Assembly (NCBI GenBank): GCA_963716815.1
Contig: CAVQUM010000003.1
Span: 261,320 to 325,319, forward strand
DNA from: an uncultured Chloroflexia bacterium
Lineage (GTDB): Bacteria > Chloroflexota > Limnocylindria > Limnocylindrales > CSP1-4
Length of the DNA stretch: 64,000 nt
Direction of reading: 5' to 3'
Each line of letters starts with the position of its first letter. Within the stretch, counting starts at the first letter, position 1. This document shows positions 53,457 through 60,434 of this stretch, one piece after another. The translations under genes were made by a program, and so were the position numbers. The notes below the pieces were generated by a model, which was not told where the DNA came from, did no database searches, and was given only the letters and a program-made list of their open reading frames with translations.

Positions 53457-53532
53457 GCCCCCGTAGCTCAGTGGATAGAGCGGCAGCGTCCTAAGCTGCG
53501 CGTCGGCGGTTCGAATCCGTCCGGGGGCGCCA
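53457..53532 (+). tRNA. tRNA-Arg (anticodon CCT), CCA encoded
   Basis: The acceptor is GCCCCCG/CGGGGGC, the D-arm GTAGCTCAGTGGATAGAGC, the anticodon stem GCAGC/GCTGC with loop GTCCTAA, the T-arm GGCGGTTCGAATCCGTC, and the 3' end is G-CCA. Confidence 0.92.
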
Positions 53533-53605
53533 GCCCATGCCTAACCCATGAGCATGTGCGAAGCGACGGCCGTGTCAAGCCAGGTGTCGATGCTGTTCTT
53601 CTGCC
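53533..53605. repeat. Segment X, copy A: about 73 nt directly 3' of tRNA-Arg, repeated at 57607..57678
   Basis: My hand alignment gives roughly three-quarters identity (gcccatgcctaacccatgagcatgtgcgaagcg... against gctcatacccaacctatgagctgtgcgaggcg...). A conserved 7-bp hairpin lies at its start. Confidence 0.6.
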
Positions 53606-53642
53606 GTCGGCCGCTGGCCGGACTCGGCGCGCTACGGTCAGG

Positions 53643-53853
53643 GAAATCGGAAAAGACTCCTCGCCTCGACCCCTCGTACACATAGAGGTCGGTGCCACGT
53701 GCTTCACTAGCACGGACGCAGACCGGTTCGGGAGAGGAGGGGTATGGATCCGGAGGTCGTGGTGCGAGCGCAACACGGTGACGAGGCCGCGTTCGAGTCG
53801 ATCTCCGTCGCCGGTTACCCGCGCCTCTATCGCATCGCCTACGGCATCCTACG
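53643..53853. repeat. Segment Y, copy A: duplicate of the ECF-sigma upstream region plus its first 37 codons (partner 59773..59983)
   Basis: About 210 nt align by eye with only scattered mismatches, from gaaatcggaaaagactcct to ggcatcct. Similarity stops abruptly at 53853/59983. Confidence 0.8.
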
Positions 53854-53854
53854 A
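53744..53854 (+). pseudogene. 5' fragment of an ECF sigma factor gene (first 37 codons only)
   Basis: 'MDPEVVVRAQHGDEAAFESISVAGYPRLYRIAYGILR' against the intact 'MDREVVVRAQHGDEAAFESITVAAYPRLYRIAYGILR' at 59874. The sequence after it is unrelated and Arg-rich. Confidence 0.75.
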
Positions 53855-53986
53855 CCTCTCGATCGCGTCGGATGGATCGGCCTGGATGGTCGTGCGTCGG
53901 AAGTCCGGGCCGGACGCGACCAGGCCCGACGGCATCTACATCCTCGATCCGGATCGCGCGACGGGTCAGCGCACCGGAGGATGACG

Positions 53987-54805
53987 ATGAAGCGCGTGAT
54001 CACGATGATGCTCCTCGCCATGGCCGTGCTCGCGCCCACGACGACGGCTCAGGACGCGTCCGCGGTCCCAGGCGCCGACGCGGCCACCTCCATACCGGTG
54101 CGCTTCGCGGTCGCCCCGACCGACCCCGCCGACGTCGACGAGCAGCCGTACTCCTTCGCTGAGCTCCAGGAGCGTGCCGACCGCGTCCACCGATCGCTCG
54201 TCGATGCGGGCTACCCGAACGTGGCCACCTCGACCCACATCACCGGCGGCGGGGTCATCCCGGTCTCGGTCCAGCAGATGGGCGATCTCCCGGCCGACCC
54301 CGACGGCGTCCTCGCCTTCGTGCCAGAGGACCTGCGAGCCGATGTCGAGCTCGATGTGACCGTGGCCCCGCCGCGTCCGTCGGCCGAGCCCGGGGCGTGG
54401 GGTCCGCTCGCGGTCGTCTATCGACCGCAGGGCTTCGGTCCGGGTGTCGGGCTGGGTCCGGTGACGCTGCGCATCGGCGACCGTTGTGTCTGGCTTGAGT
54501 CGGCGAACGGGAAGTACGCCACGACCATCGTGTGGGAAGGCAACCACGTCGACTGGCGACCGACCAACCGGCGCATCATCTTCACCGACCGCAAGGGCCG
54601 GACCGTAAGCCTCTCCGATAGGGATCGCATCGAGGGCGGCGGCGTCAGCATCTGGCGGCCCGTGGGCGAGGGGAGCTCTGATCAGCCGCGGGCAGACTCG
54701 ATCCTGGAGGCCATGACCGCCGTGCCCGACGACGATTGGCTACAGGAGCCGCACGCATCGTGTCCGGAGTCACTCTTCTTCGTGACCGAGCTGGAGGTCG
54801 AGTGA
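53987..54805 (+). CDS. Secreted hypothetical protein
   Basis: RBS ggagg lies 6 nt upstream. The signal peptide is 'MKRVITMMLLAMAVLAPTTTAQ', and the 272-aa frame is intact. Confidence 0.55.
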   Translation: MKRVITMMLLAMAVLAPTTTAQDASAVPGADAATSIPVRFAVAPTDPADVDEQPYSFAELQERADRVHRSLVDAGYPNVATSTHITGGGVIPVSVQQMGDLPADPDGVLAFVPEDLRADVELDVTVAPPRPSAEPGAWGPLAVVYRPQGFGPGVGLGPVTLRIGDRCVWLESANGKYATTIVWEGNHVDWRPTNRRIIFTDRKGRTVSLSDRDRIEGGGVSIWRPVGEGSSDQPRADSILEAMTAVPDDDWLQEPHASCPESLFFVTELEVE

Positions 54806-55887
54806 TGCGGCTCTCGATGACCATCGAGTCACACCGGCGCCTTCTCCGCGTCGCTGCGACGACCGCCCTGGTCGTGGCATCCGTGATCGGCGGAAGCGCG
54901 GCCCTCGCCGCGATCGGGCCCGAGCCGACCGAGCCGACCCTGGCGGGCACCTGGTCAAGATCCCGGACGCCCCGTGGGGCACGGTGTTCCCGGCCGCGGC
55001 CTTCACCGGAGAGGAGATGCTCGTCGTCGACCTCGAGAGCGGTCGCACGCCGAACCTACCACCCGGAGAACCGGACCTGGACCCCCACGAGACGGCACCG
55101 AAGGCGTTCGACGGCCTCAGCCCGTCGGTCTGGACCGGCACGGAGCTGCTGGTGTTCGACCGCTACAAGGCCGGCCGTTCCTACGCCTACGACCCCGAGG
55201 CGCGGAGCTGGCGCCGGCTCGCCCCCTCGCCGCTCAAGGAGCGGTGGCATGCGGAGTGGGCTGGCGGGCAGGTCGTGGTCCGCGGACGCACGAAGCTCGA
55301 ATGGGCGGCGTACGACGTGGCGGCCGATACATGGCGGTCGCTGCCGGCCCCGCCCGGCGCCCATCGGTTGTGGAGCGTGCACTGGACCGGCGACACGCTG
55401 CTCGCCGTGGCGGGTGGATACGGGGAGCGCCTTCCCCATGTGGTCGCACTGGACCTCGATACCGATATCTGGGGAAAGCCGATGAAGGGCCCAGCGGACG
55501 GGGCCCCGCGGAACCCGAGTGGATTGGCGACCAGCTCGTCTTCGTCTTCGGGTGGCCGTGGGACGACGAGCCGGTCGCCGACGCGACCTTCGACCTAGCA
55601 AGCGGCGAGTGGACCCTCGTGGACTTCGACTGTCCGATCTTGACCGGCCACGCGTCTTCGACTGGCGAGCTCTTGGTCAGCAGCCACTTCGCCCTCGATC
55701 CGGACACCGGTGTCTGTCAGGCCTTGCCCGACCGTGACCTGTGGGCGGCCTTCACCGAGGACGATGATCGGAGCTGGATCCTCAACCTCTGGACCGGCGA
55801 CCAGTTGCTGTTCTGGTCGGGGCGAACGAGGACACCAGCCCGCCCAAGACCGACGGACTCGCCTTCAGGATCGGCGTGATCCAGTGA
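54805..55887 (+). CDS. Membrane-anchored Kelch/beta-propeller-like repeat protein (paralog of 63086..64000)
   Basis: The ATG overlaps the upstream stop. The TM is 'VAATTALVVASVIGGSAALAA'. It contains 'IPDAPWGTVFPAAAF', 'WTGTELLVFD' and 'YAYDPEARSWRRLAPSPL'. About 3 frame breaks lie near 54950, 55505 and 55825. Confidence 0.5.
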
Positions 55888-55910
55888 TGAAACAGACGAG
55901 GAGGGCGAGT

Positions 55911-57510
55911 ATGGGTCTCGCACTGGCGACTTCCGCGTTGATCATGGCGTCGACGCCCGCCCTCGCCGGTGGGGGCGCGTGGTCCGCCGCGGGCGGCATC
56001 GACGAGTGCGTCGACGCAGGCGCGGAGTTCTTCACCGGTGACCTCCAAGGGGCCAGAGCACGACGTTCTGCTTCACGATGGCGCCGGGGGCGAGGGCCGC
56101 GAACTCCACCTACTTCATGTCCTTCCCTGACACCCGACCGGCATCTGCGCGAGTGATGGCCGCGAACGGCTGCTACCTGGGCGTCGCGATCCCGCAGTGG
56201 GAAGCGAAACGGCGACTCGTCGTCCGCGCTGCCGAGGGCAAGCGAAGGGTCAACGACTACGGCCTGCCCGAGAGGTACGACGGCGAGTTCAGGACGGCGC
56301 GGGCGCGCGTCGACTGCGCACGGGCTGCCAGTGCACCGCCTTCGATCCCGGCCACCCTCCCCGGGTCCGCGGTCGCGGCCGACGAGGCTCCGCTCGATCT
56401 CCTTTCGAAGCTGGAGACCGAGGAGGTCGAGCCTGGCGTGCTTCGCATCGTCTCGGACGGGCACCGTGACCTTTCCGGAGCGACCGCGGCCGATGCGCCC
56501 GAGACCTACGCGGAATACCTCGATACCCACGTCGCGCGCAACCTGGTCGTCGGGCGCGACGGTCGTGTGTGGGTCATCGAGCCTGACCGGCTCTTCCGGC
56601 TCGGGTCGCCAACCGACATCCGATGGCCACAGCCGACCCGACATGTCTCCTTCAACGACCTGGAGGTGTCGCCGGACGGCCGCTTGTGGCGCCTGGTCCC
56701 CATTCGGCGCCTCCAGTCATTCGACGGCGAGACCTGGCGTCGGCACCTCCAGCGCCAGCTCCCGTGGAGCATCGAGATGGAGCCCGACGGCACCCTGTGG
56801 GCTACCTGGACCGAGTCGGGCGTCTGCTTCGAACCCGAGGGCTGCACACCGACCCGGTTGGGACGCCGCGACCGCGAGGGCTGGTCGGTCGTCGACATCC
56901 CGAAGCTCTACCACTACTCCGGGAGCCATCTGGCGGTCACCGGCGACGGCGAGGCCTGGACGTGCTGCAAGCACGACCCACAGAAGCACGGCCCGGGGCT
57001 GCTGCGGTTCGACGGGCGACGCTGGTACGTGGAGCAGCCAGCCACCGGTGTCGATGCGGACATGGTGCTGCGCATGGATGCCGCGGAGGACGGCACCCTC
57101 TGGCTGCGTCGTTCGACATCGGCACTCGAACGCTACCGGGATGGGGTGTGGACGGTCTTCACCGATGCTGACGGCGTCCCGCCACTCGGATACACCGGCA
57201 GTGAGCTGCAGAAGCTGGTGGCCGCGCCGGACGGAGGCGTTTGGGTCGCGCCGGCGGTGTCGACGGGTCATCCCGACGACGAGCTGCGGTGCGACGGCGT
57301 GGCCCACTTCGATGGGTCGATCTGGACCCGCTATCTCCGTGACACCTGCGTCTTCTCGATGGACGTCGCGCCGGACAGATCCTCTGGCTCCAAGCCGCCA
57401 GGGTCGACATCGAGAACATCGACTCGTACCGGCTCGGCGAGACCGTGGAGCCAGTCCAGTCCTACGCCATCAGGCCGGGAGGTGGCAAGCGCTCGGCACC
57501 CGGCGACTGA
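55911..57510 (+). CDS. Secreted protein with two-component-regulator-propeller-like repeats
   Basis: RBS aggagg. The signal peptide is 'MGLALATSALIMASTPALAGG'. The repeats include 'GRDGRVWVIEPDRLFRLG', 'SPDGRLWRLV...FDGETWRR', 'EPDGTLWATW', 'AEDGTLWLRR...YRDGVWTVF' and 'APDGGVWVAP...FDGSIWTRY'. Frame breaks lie near 56050 and 57380. Confidence 0.5.
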
Positions 57511-57535
57511 GCAGGACGAGCAGGCCAGCACGTCG

Positions 57536-57608
57536 ACCCAGCGGGTACCACGCGAGCGGGTCCGACGGTTTGCTTTCCGAGCCCCCGAGTCCGTCCGGGG
57601 GCGCCAGC
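57536..57608. repeat. Right-end segment plus orphan tRNA-Arg 3' end, copy B
   Basis: 57590..57608 (tccgtccgggggcgccagc) is identical to 53516..53534. 57536..57589 aligns with 59692..59743 (acccagcgGgtaccaCgcGagcgg...ggtttgcTttccgAgcccc). Confidence 0.75.
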
Positions 57609-57678
57609 TCATACCCAACCTATGAGCTGTGCGAGGCGTCGGTCGTGTCAAGCCTGGTGCGGATGCGGTCTCCTCGGG
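57607..57678. repeat. Segment X, copy B
   Basis: See 53533..53605. It starts with the perfect hairpin gctcata-cccaacc-tatgagc. Confidence 0.6.
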
Positions 57679-57680
57679 AC

Positions 57681-57708
57681 TTGACGAGCGTAGCAACAAC
57701 TATATCGT
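57681..57708 (+). promoter_or_regulatory. Candidate sigma-70-type promoter giving a leaderless or near-leaderless transcript
   Basis: TTGACG (57681), a 16-nt spacer, then TATCGT (57703). The ATG at 57716 lies 7 nt after the -10 hexamer. This stretch is the most AT-rich in the neighbourhood. Confidence 0.4.
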
Positions 57709-57715
57709 TATCGCA

Positions 57716-58416
57716 ATGGTTGATACTACGCCTCGACCCATGGAGCGCTACCTGACGACGGCACAAGCCGCCAAGCTGCTGGGCGTTCACAGCCGCGAGT
57801 CCGTGCGCTGATCGCGAGTGGCGAGTTGCGTGCGACGAAAGCTGGACACGACTGGAGCGTCATGCGCTCGGACGTCGAGGCACGCGTCGATCGCGACGCC
57901 CCAGGAGGGCGACCCCTATCTCCCGCCTCGGCGTGGGGACTGTTCGAGCTGGCCGACGGTCGCGTCCCCGGTTGGCTGGACCGCCAACAGCGCTGGCGGG
58001 TATCGAAGTTCATCCCCCGCCTCCGTTCCGGTGATCTCAGTGGTCGCTTGGTTCGACGCGCTGTGCGTCGGCCGTTCCACGTCCATCCCGGGGTGATGGA
58101 ACGACTTCGTACGGACAGCGCGCTCATGCTGACCGGCACCTCGGTAAGTGGTCCGCTCCGACTCGGACTCACCGGCGGACCAGACAGTGTCGAGGCCTAC
58201 GTCAGCGAGCGTGATGTCGAGGACGTCGTGCGGCGCTACTTCCTGGAGCCAGCCGACGACGATGCCAACGTCCTCCTGCGCGTCGTCCCGGACCTCGGCT
58301 CATCCTGGCTGTCCCGTGAGGTCGCGCCATCCGCAGCCGTGGCACTCGACCTGCTGGAACACCCGGACCCACGAGCCCGCCAGGCCGGGCGTGATCTGTT
58401 GCGAGCCAAGCCGTGA
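57716..58416 (+). CDS. HTH (excisionase/MerR-like) DNA-binding protein with a C-terminal domain; candidate AbiEi/MenA-like antitoxin
   Basis: Contains 'YLTTAQAAKLLGVHSRESVRALIASGELRATKAGHDWSVMRSDVEARV', with a frame break near 57800. An approximately 170-aa C-terminal domain follows. It overlaps the next gene by 4 nt (GTGA). Confidence 0.55.
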
Positions 58417-59150
58417 CGGATGTCACCGCGCTGCATCCAGTCGACCAGCAGCAGGCTGCCGTCTGGCGGCTGGCGAAGGAGGTGGCGTCGGCGTTCGCCG
58501 GGTTGCCGTTCGTCCTGATCGGCGGCCTGATGGTCCAGCTGCTCGAGGCCGAACGCGGAGTTGTCAGCGGCTTCGCGACCGGCGACATGGATGTCGTCCT
58601 CGACGTCCGCCCTCTAACGGGTGCGACAGCACGTGCCGCAGCCGCGTCGGTGGATGCCGGCTTCGCGCCTGAGCGATACGACGACGACCTGACCTACAGG
58701 TTCGTCCGTGGCGACGACGTCGTGGACCTGCTCGCTCCCGACCATCTCGGTGTCCGGACGAGCATCGTGACCGTGCCGCCCGCCTCGACCCTCCCTGCGC
58801 TCGGAGCCCGCCAGGCGCTGAACCGCCTCCGGACCGTCCGGGTCGATGCCGGAGACGGCGCGTTCGACTTGCCCGTGCCGTCACTGACCGGCGCCATCGT
58901 GCTCAAGGCCAGGGTCGTGGAGAGCGCGGCTGGGCGAGCGAGCCTTCCGAAGCACGAGCGCGACCTAGCCCGACTCCTGGCACTCGTCGAGGACCCGGAC
59001 ACTGAGGCGGCGGGGCTGACCCACAAGGAGCGTGGCTACTTGCGCGCACGTGGCGACATGGCTGACACCCGCCATCGAGCGTGGCGCGGGATCGAGAACC
59101 CACTTGACGGGGTCGCCGCCCTCCGCATCCTCGCGGCCGACCGAGCCTGA
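58413..59150 (+). CDS. Pol-beta-fold nucleotidyltransferase; candidate AbiEii/MenT-like toxin
   Basis: 245 aa, intact. It contains 'FVLIGGLMVQLL...TGDMDVVLD' (G-G ... D-x-D), 'VVDLLAP', 'AIVLKARV' and 'KHERDLARLLAL'. Confidence 0.55.
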   Translation: MTDVTALHPVDQQQAAVWRLAKEVASAFAGLPFVLIGGLMVQLLEAERGVVSGFATGDMDVVLDVRPLTGATARAAAASVDAGFAPERYDDDLTYRFVRGDDVVDLLAPDHLGVRTSIVTVPPASTLPALGARQALNRLRTVRVDAGDGAFDLPVPSLTGAIVLKARVVESAAGRASLPKHERDLARLLALVEDPDTEAAGLTHKERGYLRARGDMADTRHRAWRGIENPLDGVAALRILAADRA

Positions 59151-59277
59151 TCTGGCCTAAGGGCTGATAGCGGCCGAACCTCGACGCGGCCCTCCATGCC
59201 GTAGTGGTTGCGTTCGTCGTCATGCGCATCGCGCCCAGCGGCATGATCGCCGTGATGTCGGTGCTCTTGCTGTTCGC

Positions 59278-59394
59278 ATGATGGCCGGCGTCCTGCGCAT
59301 CGCCATGGTCGTCCTGATGCCTGAGGTCTTCTTGCCGGTCGTGTTCCTGATCATCCACTTCGTCGTGCTCATCATCATCCTCGGCGTGCCTTAG
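59278..59394 (+). CDS. Candidate 38-aa hydrophobic peptide
   Basis: 'MMAGVLRIAMVVLMPEVFLPVVFLIIHFVVLIIILGVP*'. By hand count, wobble positions are G/C in 36 of 38 codons, against about 24 of 38 for the codon-aligned antisense His/Asp-rich ORF 58903..59619. Confidence 0.3.
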   Translation: MMAGVLRIAMVVLMPEVFLPVVFLIIHFVVLIIILGVP

Positions 59395-59691
59395 ATCGCC
59401 GTGCCCGTGGTGATGATCGTACGCGATCCACGTGGTCCCGGTGCCCGTGCTTGTCGCGCCCGTTCTCGTCATAGCCTGCTCTACCGGATCGGCAGCAGCA
59501 GGGCCGGCGCCAGCAGCGTTGGCAGTAGCGGTTGTGGTACCGGCAGCGTCGTCGCCGCCAACCACATCATCGGCGGCGGTGGCTTCGTCATCGCTGTCAC
59601 CAGCAGAAGTCGGCGACATGAGAGTCTGGATAGACCCTCACTGGACGACCGGTTCCGGCGACCTGCGGAGCCGATCTGACGGCTACTCGCT

Positions 59692-59761
59692 ACCCAGCGC
59701 GTACCAAGCCAGCGGTCGGGTGGTTTGCCTTCCGCGCCCCTTCATCCGTCCGGGGGCGCCA
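59692..59761. repeat. Right-end segment plus orphan tRNA-Arg 3' end, copy C
   Basis: 59744..59761 (atccgtccgggggcgcca) is identical to 53515..53532. The upstream 52 nt align with 57536..57589. Confidence 0.75.
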
Positions 59762-59772
59762 TGGCCACGCAC

Positions 59773-59983
59773 GAAATCGGAAAAGACTCCTGGACTCAAC
59801 CCCTCGTGCACATAGAGGTCGGCCGGGCGTGCTTCACTAGCATGGAGACAGACCGGTTCGCAACAGGAGGGGTATGGATCGGGAGGTCGTGGTGCGAGCG
59901 CAACACGGTGACGAGGCCGCATTCGAGTCGATCACCGTCGCTGCCTACCCGCGCCTCTACCGCATCGCCTATGGCATCCTGCG
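59773..59983. repeat. Segment Y, copy C: native ECF-sigma upstream region plus 5' coding end
   Basis: See 53643..53853. Confidence 0.8.
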
Positions 59984-60434
59984 CGAGCACGGTGCCGCCG
60001 ACGATGCTGCCCAGACCGCGCTCGTGGACATCTGGCGCCGCCTCCCACGACTGCGTGGCCCTGAGAAGTTCGACGGTTGGTCGTACCGGCTGCTGGTCCG
60101 CATCTGCTACGCCGAGGCCAAGCGCCGGCCGAAGTGGCTGCCCGGCGAAGCCATCACGCGCTCGGTCGAGCCTCGCGCCGCCGATCCGTTCGGCACCGTG
60201 CTCGACCAGGACCAGCTGGAGCGGGCGTTCGGGGCCCTGACCGTCGACCACCGCGCGGTCATCGTCCTGCGCTACCTGCTGGACCTGCCCCTCGAGCAAG
60301 TGGCGCAGGCGCTCGACATCCCCGTCGGCACGGTCGGCTCGCGACTCCATCGTGCACTCGAGGTCCTGCGCGCGAGCGTCGAGGCTGGCGAACGCACCGC
60401 ACCGCTCGAAGCCAACTCGGAGGGACGCTCATGA
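59874..60434 (+). CDS. ECF-type RNA polymerase sigma-70 family factor
   Basis: 186 aa, intact, with RBS aggagggg. Region 2 is 'AAFESITVAAYPRLYRIAYGIL...AQTALVDIWRRL' and region 4 is 'VIVLRYLLDLPLEQVAQALDIPVGTVGSRLHRA'. Confidence 0.88.
   Translation: MDREVVVRAQHGDEAAFESITVAAYPRLYRIAYGILREHGAADDAAQTALVDIWRRLPRLRGPEKFDGWSYRLLVRICYAEAKRRPKWLPGEAITRSVEPRAADPFGTVLDQDQLERAFGALTVDHRAVIVLRYLLDLPLEQVAQALDIPVGTVGSRLHRALEVLRASVEAGERTAPLEANSEGRS

Follow-up and report, generated by a model that had tools for sequence, protein, structure and literature searches.

In this study, we analysed a window of 64,000 nucleotides (the whole stretch of DNA considered here, to which all coordinates refer unless another contig is named; the features described lie on its + strand) that includes a tRNA-Arg(CCT) gene at 53457..53532. 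The tRNA was located with ARAGORN and was the sole match in an Rfam search of the locus (Rfam tRNA, 60.5 bits). After a gap of 110 nt it is followed by the first of two copies of a repeated block. Copy A (53643..53853), as delimited by alignment to copy B and to the related genome G021, comprises a leader with a signature typical of a family of sigma factor genes, a ribosome binding site (RBS, 53731-53742) and a 37-codon sigma gene stub (53744-53854). Copy B (59773..59983), delimited by the same alignment, comprises a leader with that signature and the first 37 codons of an intact sigma gene. The alignment of 53643-53853 to 59773-59983 is ungapped over 211 nt, with 187 identical positions (88.6%) and 24 mismatches, and in a local BLAST comparison the two copies matched with E = 5e-75. 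Each copy has 101 nt of leader upstream of its start codon (ATG 53744 in copy A, ATG 59874 in copy B), and the RBS reads GGAGAGGAGGGG in copy A and CAGGAGGGG in copy B. The encoded peptides differ at three residues (P3R, S21T and G24A). Similarity begins at GAAATCGG and ends sharply between 53853 and 53854 in copy A. The first-pass annotation had called for a precise alignment of the copies, having described a match of about 210 nt that takes in the RBS and 37 codons with three amino-acid differences and that stops abruptly inside the coding sequence, and the alignment bears out that description in each respect. An upstream extension of the homology at low identity (left arm and spacer before copy A against right arm and core before copy B, see below) was rejected, its alignment being no better than those of shuffles (p = 0.22). 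There are only two high-identity copies of the block in the genome; the remaining matches are the starts of paralogous sigma genes, at 69-76% identity.

The gene that copy B heads encodes an ECF sigma factor of 186 residues (sigma B, 59874..60434), identified by Pfam (Sigma70_r2, 3.9e-10; Sigma70_r4_2, 1.7e-13; Sigma70_ECF) and by TIGR02937 (70.7 bits, cut-off 42.9). Regions 2 and 4 are present and region 3 is absent, as in ECF (group 4) sigma factors, and a gene for a membrane partner overlaps the 3' end of the sigma gene (ATGA at 60431). Sigma B is 91 and 93% identical to its orthologs in the related genomes G021 and G056, respectively, with regions 2 and 4 nearly unchanged. The open frame that starts in copy A, ORF 53744..54805, is of another kind. 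It is 353 codons long and runs in frame across the ATG at 53987 of the next gene, a read-through that had been noted correctly in the first-pass annotation. Residues 1-37 alone align to sigma paralogs and the 353-aa ORF has no Pfam family; it is not a sigma gene. Beyond the junction after the stub, which we read as that of a deletion, translation of 53854..53981 revealed the tail of a propeller-type gene, comprising its final 41 codons (53856-53978) and TGA (53979-53981), in a frame different from that of the stub. The closest match to this tail, at 41% amino-acid identity, is the C-terminus of a gene in a G021 cassette that ends at L016:14750.

Three genes follow the propeller tail. Gene a (53987..54805, delimited by a GC3 frame plot) encodes a protein of 272 residues with a signal peptide and no family match; over residues 50-272 this protein shares 79% identity with the C-terminal part of a 672-aa ORF lying beyond the window end, at ~68.4-70.4 kb on the window scale. 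Gene b (54984..55879) is Kelch-like and, according to the frame plot, is spread over two frames with a shift near 55472-55494; its counterpart in G021 is a single ORF of 368-384 aa with Kelch hits. The shift sits among short G and C runs and may be a sequencing error. The source metagenome-assembled genome (MAG) and the related assemblies are probably based on long reads, so that single-base frame breaks are to be read with care. Gene c (56366..57510) encodes a propeller-repeat protein with a weak Reg_prop match; its formal ORF is 56078..57625, and paralogs align only to residues ~97-435. The true stop, reached through a 1-nt frame change near 57370, is likely at 57508-57510. In the alternative frame (57360-57510) we observed a typical propeller ending (…GQILWLQAARVDIENIDSYRL…) followed by that stop; the formal ORF would run through the right arm and core of the cassette. 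Given this ending, the right arm is probably non-coding. Apart from the weak Reg_prop match of gene c, searches with Pfam, NCBIfam and PADLOC gave no match for genes a and c or for the cargo of the second cassette described below.

The last 17 nt of the tRNA (53516-53532, TCCGTCCGGGGGCGCCA) constitute a core repeat, O1, that forms the left limit of a cassette array, and the same 17 nt recur exactly at 57590-57606 (O2) and 59745-59761 (O3). A fourth core copy, identical at 15 of 17 positions, lies ~7.5 kb past the window end. Together with a more diverged fourth right arm (C3:332779-332846 of the same genome), it stands ~110 nt before the next sigma paralog (ATG C3:332961), indicating that the array continues past the window. 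Cassette 1 (53533-57606, 4.07 kb) contains copy A. Its left arm (53533..53642) consists of an element X (53533-53596), which is 83-85% identical to 57607-57669 and is also present after a core copy in the genome G009, and a 46-nt spacer. Its right end (57536..57606), comprising the right arm 'pre' (57536-57585) and O2, is 81.7% identical over 71 nt to 59692-59761 (nhmmer E = 1e-20) and can form a hairpin of 7 G-C pairs; the 'pre' arms of ~50 nt before O2 and O3 are themselves ~81% identical. Cassette 2 (57607-59761, 2.15 kb) has, ahead of its own right arm (57607..59691), the left arm X' (57607-57669) and a two-gene cargo encoding an HTH protein and a 245-aa protein (~57740-59150), and is 86% identical to a G009 cassette that lies between core copies. 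A reading of 57740 as the frameshifted excisionase of an integrase element was rejected, as no integrase is present and the frame shift is possibly a sequencing error. Comparison of arms and cores placed a second right arm (59692-59740), O3 and 11 further nucleotides (TGGCCACGCAC) at 59692..59772. Those 11 nt, directly after which copy B begins, match the beginning of cassette left ends of a second type; in genome G020 'tagccacgcac' follows the tRNA directly.

The array thereby has three junctions, namely tRNA plus left arm, right arm plus core plus left arm, and right arm plus core plus new flank. Because the core repeats carry matching left and right arms, the sequence indicates two cassettes in tandem: two related recombinase-less units that were, by this reading, integrated in succession at the 3' end of tRNA-Arg and now stand before the intact sigma operon. 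As in tRNA-linked genomic islands, the 3' end of the tRNA is directly repeated at the far boundary of each unit. As in cis-mobilizable elements, att-type repeats with element-specific arms occur on both sides (X and X', and the 'pre' arms of O2 and O3, are common to the units), together with an absence of mobility genes. No recombinase was found in this genome's array, as PF00589 matches occurred only elsewhere in the genome and PF00239 had no match in the assembly. The consensus fold of the X arm showed no real covariation. The X arm may conceivably be a remnant of the 3' end of a recombinase gene like that of the genome G005 (see below); the match was marginal (p = 0.026) and not colinear.

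Comparison with relatives at the same locus revealed that homology with this genome stops at 53532 or 53537 in 10 of 11, with different content beyond, the exception being G021, in which it continues through copy A. Thus synteny breaks at the 3' end of the tRNA and the content that follows varies between genomes, which is a hallmark of genomic islands. Of the 12 loci compared across the genus, 7 have core copies downstream of the tRNA. In G021, tRNA-Arg is followed by X and its spacer and then by the block, which there leads into an operon whose ECF sigma gene is complete (186 aa). Agreement of copy A with G021 ends at 53853, and that of copy B sets in at the first base of the block and extends over ~4.8 kb. 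The G021 cassette is 17.7 kb long, has all its genes on one strand and has no mobility genes, and at its end a gene, right arm and core share 91% identity with 56349-57616, which spans gene c, the right arm and the core here.

The left arm and spacer (53533-53642 compared with L016 419-526) are identical to G021 at 105 of 108 aligned positions (97%), compared with 85% for the adjacent host gene and 92% for the block, an excess that suggests either recent exchange of this piece or strong constraint on the attachment arm. After the large cassette, G021 has three more core copies (at 436, 1450 and 2669 of L027, G021:C4:139500-142183), spaced 1.0-1.2 kb apart. The G021 contig ends 7 nt after the last of these (…GCCA TCGCCAC), a sequence that resembles the TGGCCAC preceding copy B, and a second sigma-led unit may lie beyond the contig end.

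Two other relatives extend this picture. G005 has a 571-aa ORF of a large serine recombinase with Resolvase, Recombinase and zinc-ribbon domains (G005:C7, L014 16205-17920, + strand of the locus), which reads towards tRNA-Arg(CCT) and ends inside the tRNA. An ECF sigma paralog lies ~1.2 kb beyond the start of that ORF. A serine recombinase of this type likely drives the cassette arrays of the genus. In G056, a sigma operon of the copy B type follows a tRNA-Val without arms or core repeats, and homology begins within 4 nt of the same left edge, from which it follows that the sigma unit is not always found in a cassette context. This ortholog of the copy B operon (G056:C7 ~312448-312620; tRNA-Val at 6448-6524 of L026) is 81-90% identical to it, lies 95 nt after tRNA-Val(CAC), and meets unrelated sequence at its far end. 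The left edge of the block is thus the same in three unrelated contexts, consistent with a boundary fixed by where a required promoter begins.

The block's leader carries a signature that we found in at least 28 distinct upstream regions of sigma paralogs across the genus: GGA(A/T), ~21 nt, (CC)CT-C(G/A)TAC, 3-4 nt, and TAGAGG. The two stretches that the first-pass annotation had singled out as promoter candidates proved to be parts of it, conserved upstream of the whole paralog family. In all but one of the 28 regions the signature stands 31-64 nt before the start codon, and in most of them GGA(A/T) lies 24-27 nt before C(G/A)TAC, which gives a spacer of ~21 rather than 16-17 nt; many also have TTG 11-12 nt before CGTAC. 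In copy A the elements are GGAAA (53649-53653), CGTAC (53675-53679) and TAGAGG (53683-53688), and in copy B they are GGAAA (59779-59783), CGTGC (59805-59809) and TAGAGG (59813-59818). A strict form of the pattern occurs at 11 places in the genome, 8 of them at sigma starts or the stub, and inside the cassettes of three genomes the signature occurs at sigma starts only. The leader pattern was absent from the metagenome contigs, and among species representatives it was found in G021 and G056 only. Across the genus, TAGAGG stands either 31-36 nt or 55-64 nt before the start codon of sigma paralogs, and the class with the longer distance has a GGACCGG…CGGTCC hairpin with some compensating changes. 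Near either copy, no sigma-70 type promoter and no intrinsic terminator were detected, nor was a terminator found between copy A and gene a, and the leader hairpins were no more stable than those of shuffles (z = -0.4 and +0.3). Textbook ECF promoters have 16-17 nt between -35 and -10. Since the spacing here is longer, the signature may instead be a recognition site for another factor, or an element of the leader. In Bacillus subtilis, the SigW promoter consists of a -35 TGAAAC, 16 nt and a -10 CGTA, and serves an autoregulated operon of an ECF sigma factor and its anti-sigma factor. Copy B is similar in that the ECF sigma gene it heads is overlapped by the gene of a membrane partner, and in the two-part GGAA ... 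CGTA arrangement upstream across the paralogs, and differs in its ~21-nt spacing and in the additional invariant TAGAGG.

On these comparisons, copy A is very probably what is left of a second ECF sigma gene, of which the promoter, leader, RBS and 37 codons survive as a 5' relic. In allele type the stub sides with G021, matching the G021 sigma at 36 of 37 residues versus 34 of 37 for sigma B, and no further pieces of a sigma gene were found between the copies (53854-59772). As G021 has a complete sigma gene in the identical tRNA-spacer context, copy A would represent a native 5' end and not a duplication made by an insertion. The first-pass annotation had suggested a recombination scar from the insertion or excision of an island; the tie to island turnover at tRNA-Arg holds, but the notion of a scar or duplication does not, the body of the gene having apparently been lost by an internal deletion. 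In the blocks, copy A is 88.6% identical to copy B, 92.4% to G021 and 91.0% to G056, and copy B is 91.0 and 90.0% identical to G021 and G056, respectively. Relative to the other three sequences, copy A has 8 sites of its own and copy B has 9, compared with 3 and 7 in the other two, so that there is no excess of lineage-specific change in copy A, and the A-only and B-only sites alternate along the block. This divergence and interleaving give no sign of a recent duplication or a single crossover, and the comparison indicates that copies A and B are the heads of two separately diverged sister cassettes.

Overall, we consider it likely that a sigma-led cassette at tRNA-Arg, an internal deletion and a tandem array together account for the relic stub. 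A cargo cassette headed by a second ECF sigma gene would once have been inserted at the 3' end of tRNA-Arg(CCT). Deletion within the cassette would then have removed the rest of the sigma gene, its anti-sigma partner and most of the following propeller gene, fusing sigma codon 37 to the last 41 propeller codons in another frame. The resulting order would be the deleted cassette 1, the two-gene cassette 2, and a third, intact sigma-led unit that begins at copy B. Since it has the same two ends as the G021 cassette, cassette 1 can be regarded as a shrunken relative of it. Its middle is not colinear with G021, where gene a has no homolog and gene b occupies another place in the gene order. Cassette 1 is therefore not a simple deletion derivative of the G021 cassette, and its parent is a reconstruction rather than an observed sequence.

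Whether the promoter of copy A is still active is close to an even question, with the balance slightly against it. Lacking region 2, the stub cannot give rise to a sigma factor. The lost sigma factor has its ortholog in G021, to which sigma B is ~91% identical, with nearly the same DNA-reading regions, and whatever factor reads copy B would probably also start transcripts near 53690 at copy A. Such transcripts would run, with no recognisable terminator, through the stub and genes a (secreted), b (Kelch-like) and c (propeller). Should these sigma factors recognise their own leaders, the two copies would be expected to fire together. The first-pass annotation had proposed, as an alternative to a scar, a decoy promoter that responds to the intact sigma and would bring 53987-57510 under its control; with the signature intact and no terminator detected, such activity is plausible.

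A stronger form of this idea holds that copy A is a working part rather than a decaying relic, kept by selection as an orphan promoter through which genes a, b and c stay in the regulon of the sister sigma that is still intact. The signature blocks in copy A are indeed unchanged, their sole copy-A-specific change (53678, G to A) moving towards the consensus CGTAC, but 8 lineage-specific changes are too few for constraint to be demonstrable, with ~1.6 expected in the blocks by chance and 1 seen. It is also the only promoter-type signature upstream of genes a-c, just as the full G021 cassette has one signature before all its one-strand genes, and sigma B hardly differs in regions 2 and 4 from the sigma factor of G021, which among intact relatives is closest to the lost protein. 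Several features argue against a useful role. Ribosomes loaded at the strong RBS of the stub would read in frame over the start of gene a and bury its signal peptide, genes b and c have frame breaks (perhaps real decay, possibly sequencing errors), and three more sigma stubs in the genome indicate that relics are common in this family. In addition, the exact junction was absent from the other public and metagenome contigs searched and thus rests on one MAG. We therefore regard a selected orphan promoter as unlikely. Still less probable, in our view, is the general scheme in which the decay of a sister cassette leaves a promoter stub through which the intact sister sigma retains control of secreted, Kelch and propeller genes, as a regular route by which ECF regulons gain target operons and of which other stubs would be further cases.

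Two explanations would dispense with a second sigma gene or with the junction itself. Formally, the genome equals the G021 arrangement with 6130 nt added where the block passes into the remainder of the sigma gene, as might result if a single sigma gene had been split by a ~6.1-kb circle with a homologous 211-nt segment (Campbell-type) or by an insertion that duplicated its target. However, the copies differ by 11%, as do orthologs in other species, and a Campbell-type crossover pattern was looked for in the block and rejected, the interleaved A-only and B-only sites having no switch point. The inserted piece would also need its own core repeats and arms in cassette order, and at its right edge copy A abuts the tail of a gene, as expected after a deletion. 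A split gene is accordingly very improbable. An assembly artefact, with the contig joining two strains or loci of the metagenome at copy A, is the least probable reading of all. The genome is a 24-contig MAG that is 78% complete, the related records are MFD MAGs, and the G021 contig that ends just past a core copy demonstrates that repeats do break assemblies here. Yet an assembler would have met no misleading repeat at the junction between 53853 and 53854, identity between the two copies is only 88.6%, and a single G021 cassette matches cassette 1 on both flanks at 91-97%. Deletion within a sigma-led cassette thus remains our preferred reading of copy A.

Arrays with comparable features are known from other systems. 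In Dehalococcoides, several islands are stacked downstream of a single small-RNA gene, ssrA, each terminated by a direct repeat of ~20 nt of the 3' end of the gene, with a conserved motif just upstream of the repeat (McMurdie et al. 2011, PMC3146451). Many of those islands have no integration module and were proposed to be cis-mobilizable, and the ssrA integrase is a large serine recombinase next to attL (PMC3146451); the concept of cis-mobilizable elements and their accretion is cited both there and in PMC5704250. The array described here resembles them in its stacked units with 3'-end repeats and in apparently belonging to the same phylum, with the G005 recombinase at the tRNA as the counterpart of the attL integrase. 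It differs in that its target is tRNA-Arg(CCT), its cargo consists of ECF sigma, anti-sigma, Kelch and propeller genes and not of dehalogenases, it has no recombinase, and one cassette has a truncated copy of the lead gene of a neighbouring cassette. In Streptococcus thermophilus, islands of the ICESt1/ICESt3 type include recombinase-less units between attachment sites that arose by deletion from fuller elements and stand in tandem with relatives. Those elements have tyrosine integrases, target the 3' end of a protein-coding gene, and have had their mobility shown experimentally. The units studied here share their tandem arrangement of recombinase-less units flanked by att sites, but target a tRNA.

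Copy A is also similar to the ordinary pseudogene stubs that deletions leave in fast-turnover families, as only a 5' fragment and an intact upstream region remain. It differs from them in standing before same-strand cargo genes without a terminator and beside an intact sister sigma gene that is 91-93% identical to its orthologs. The three further truncated sigma stubs in this genome are at C13:9375(-), C14:~184611(+) and C18:68627(-), and cover residues 1-105, 15-100 and 1-120, respectively; the C18 stub has a near-consensus upstream signature. Other sigma paralogs of the genome lie near tRNA sequences, one (C5:9677(-)) 132 nt after tRNA-Ser(TGA) and another (C11:74055(+)) ~190 nt after an orphan tRNA 3' fragment, which itself follows fragments of a tyrosine integrase (C11:73119-73620).

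Copy A is an ordinary decay product, the truncated lead gene of a decayed cassette in a tRNA-linked tandem array with an intact sister adjoining. Nothing in this outcome would be surprising to a specialist in mobile elements or ECF sigma factors. It does have a consequence for annotation, as ORF 53744-54805 should not be recorded as a 353-aa protein or as a sigma factor, being a 37-codon stub read through into the separate gene of a secreted protein. The locus also provides a natural test case, in which one promoter is present in two copies, with and without its sigma gene, and which could reveal autoregulation and cross-talk of sigma paralogs. More broadly, it records the birth and death of ECF sigma modules in recombinase-less cassette arrays at a tRNA.
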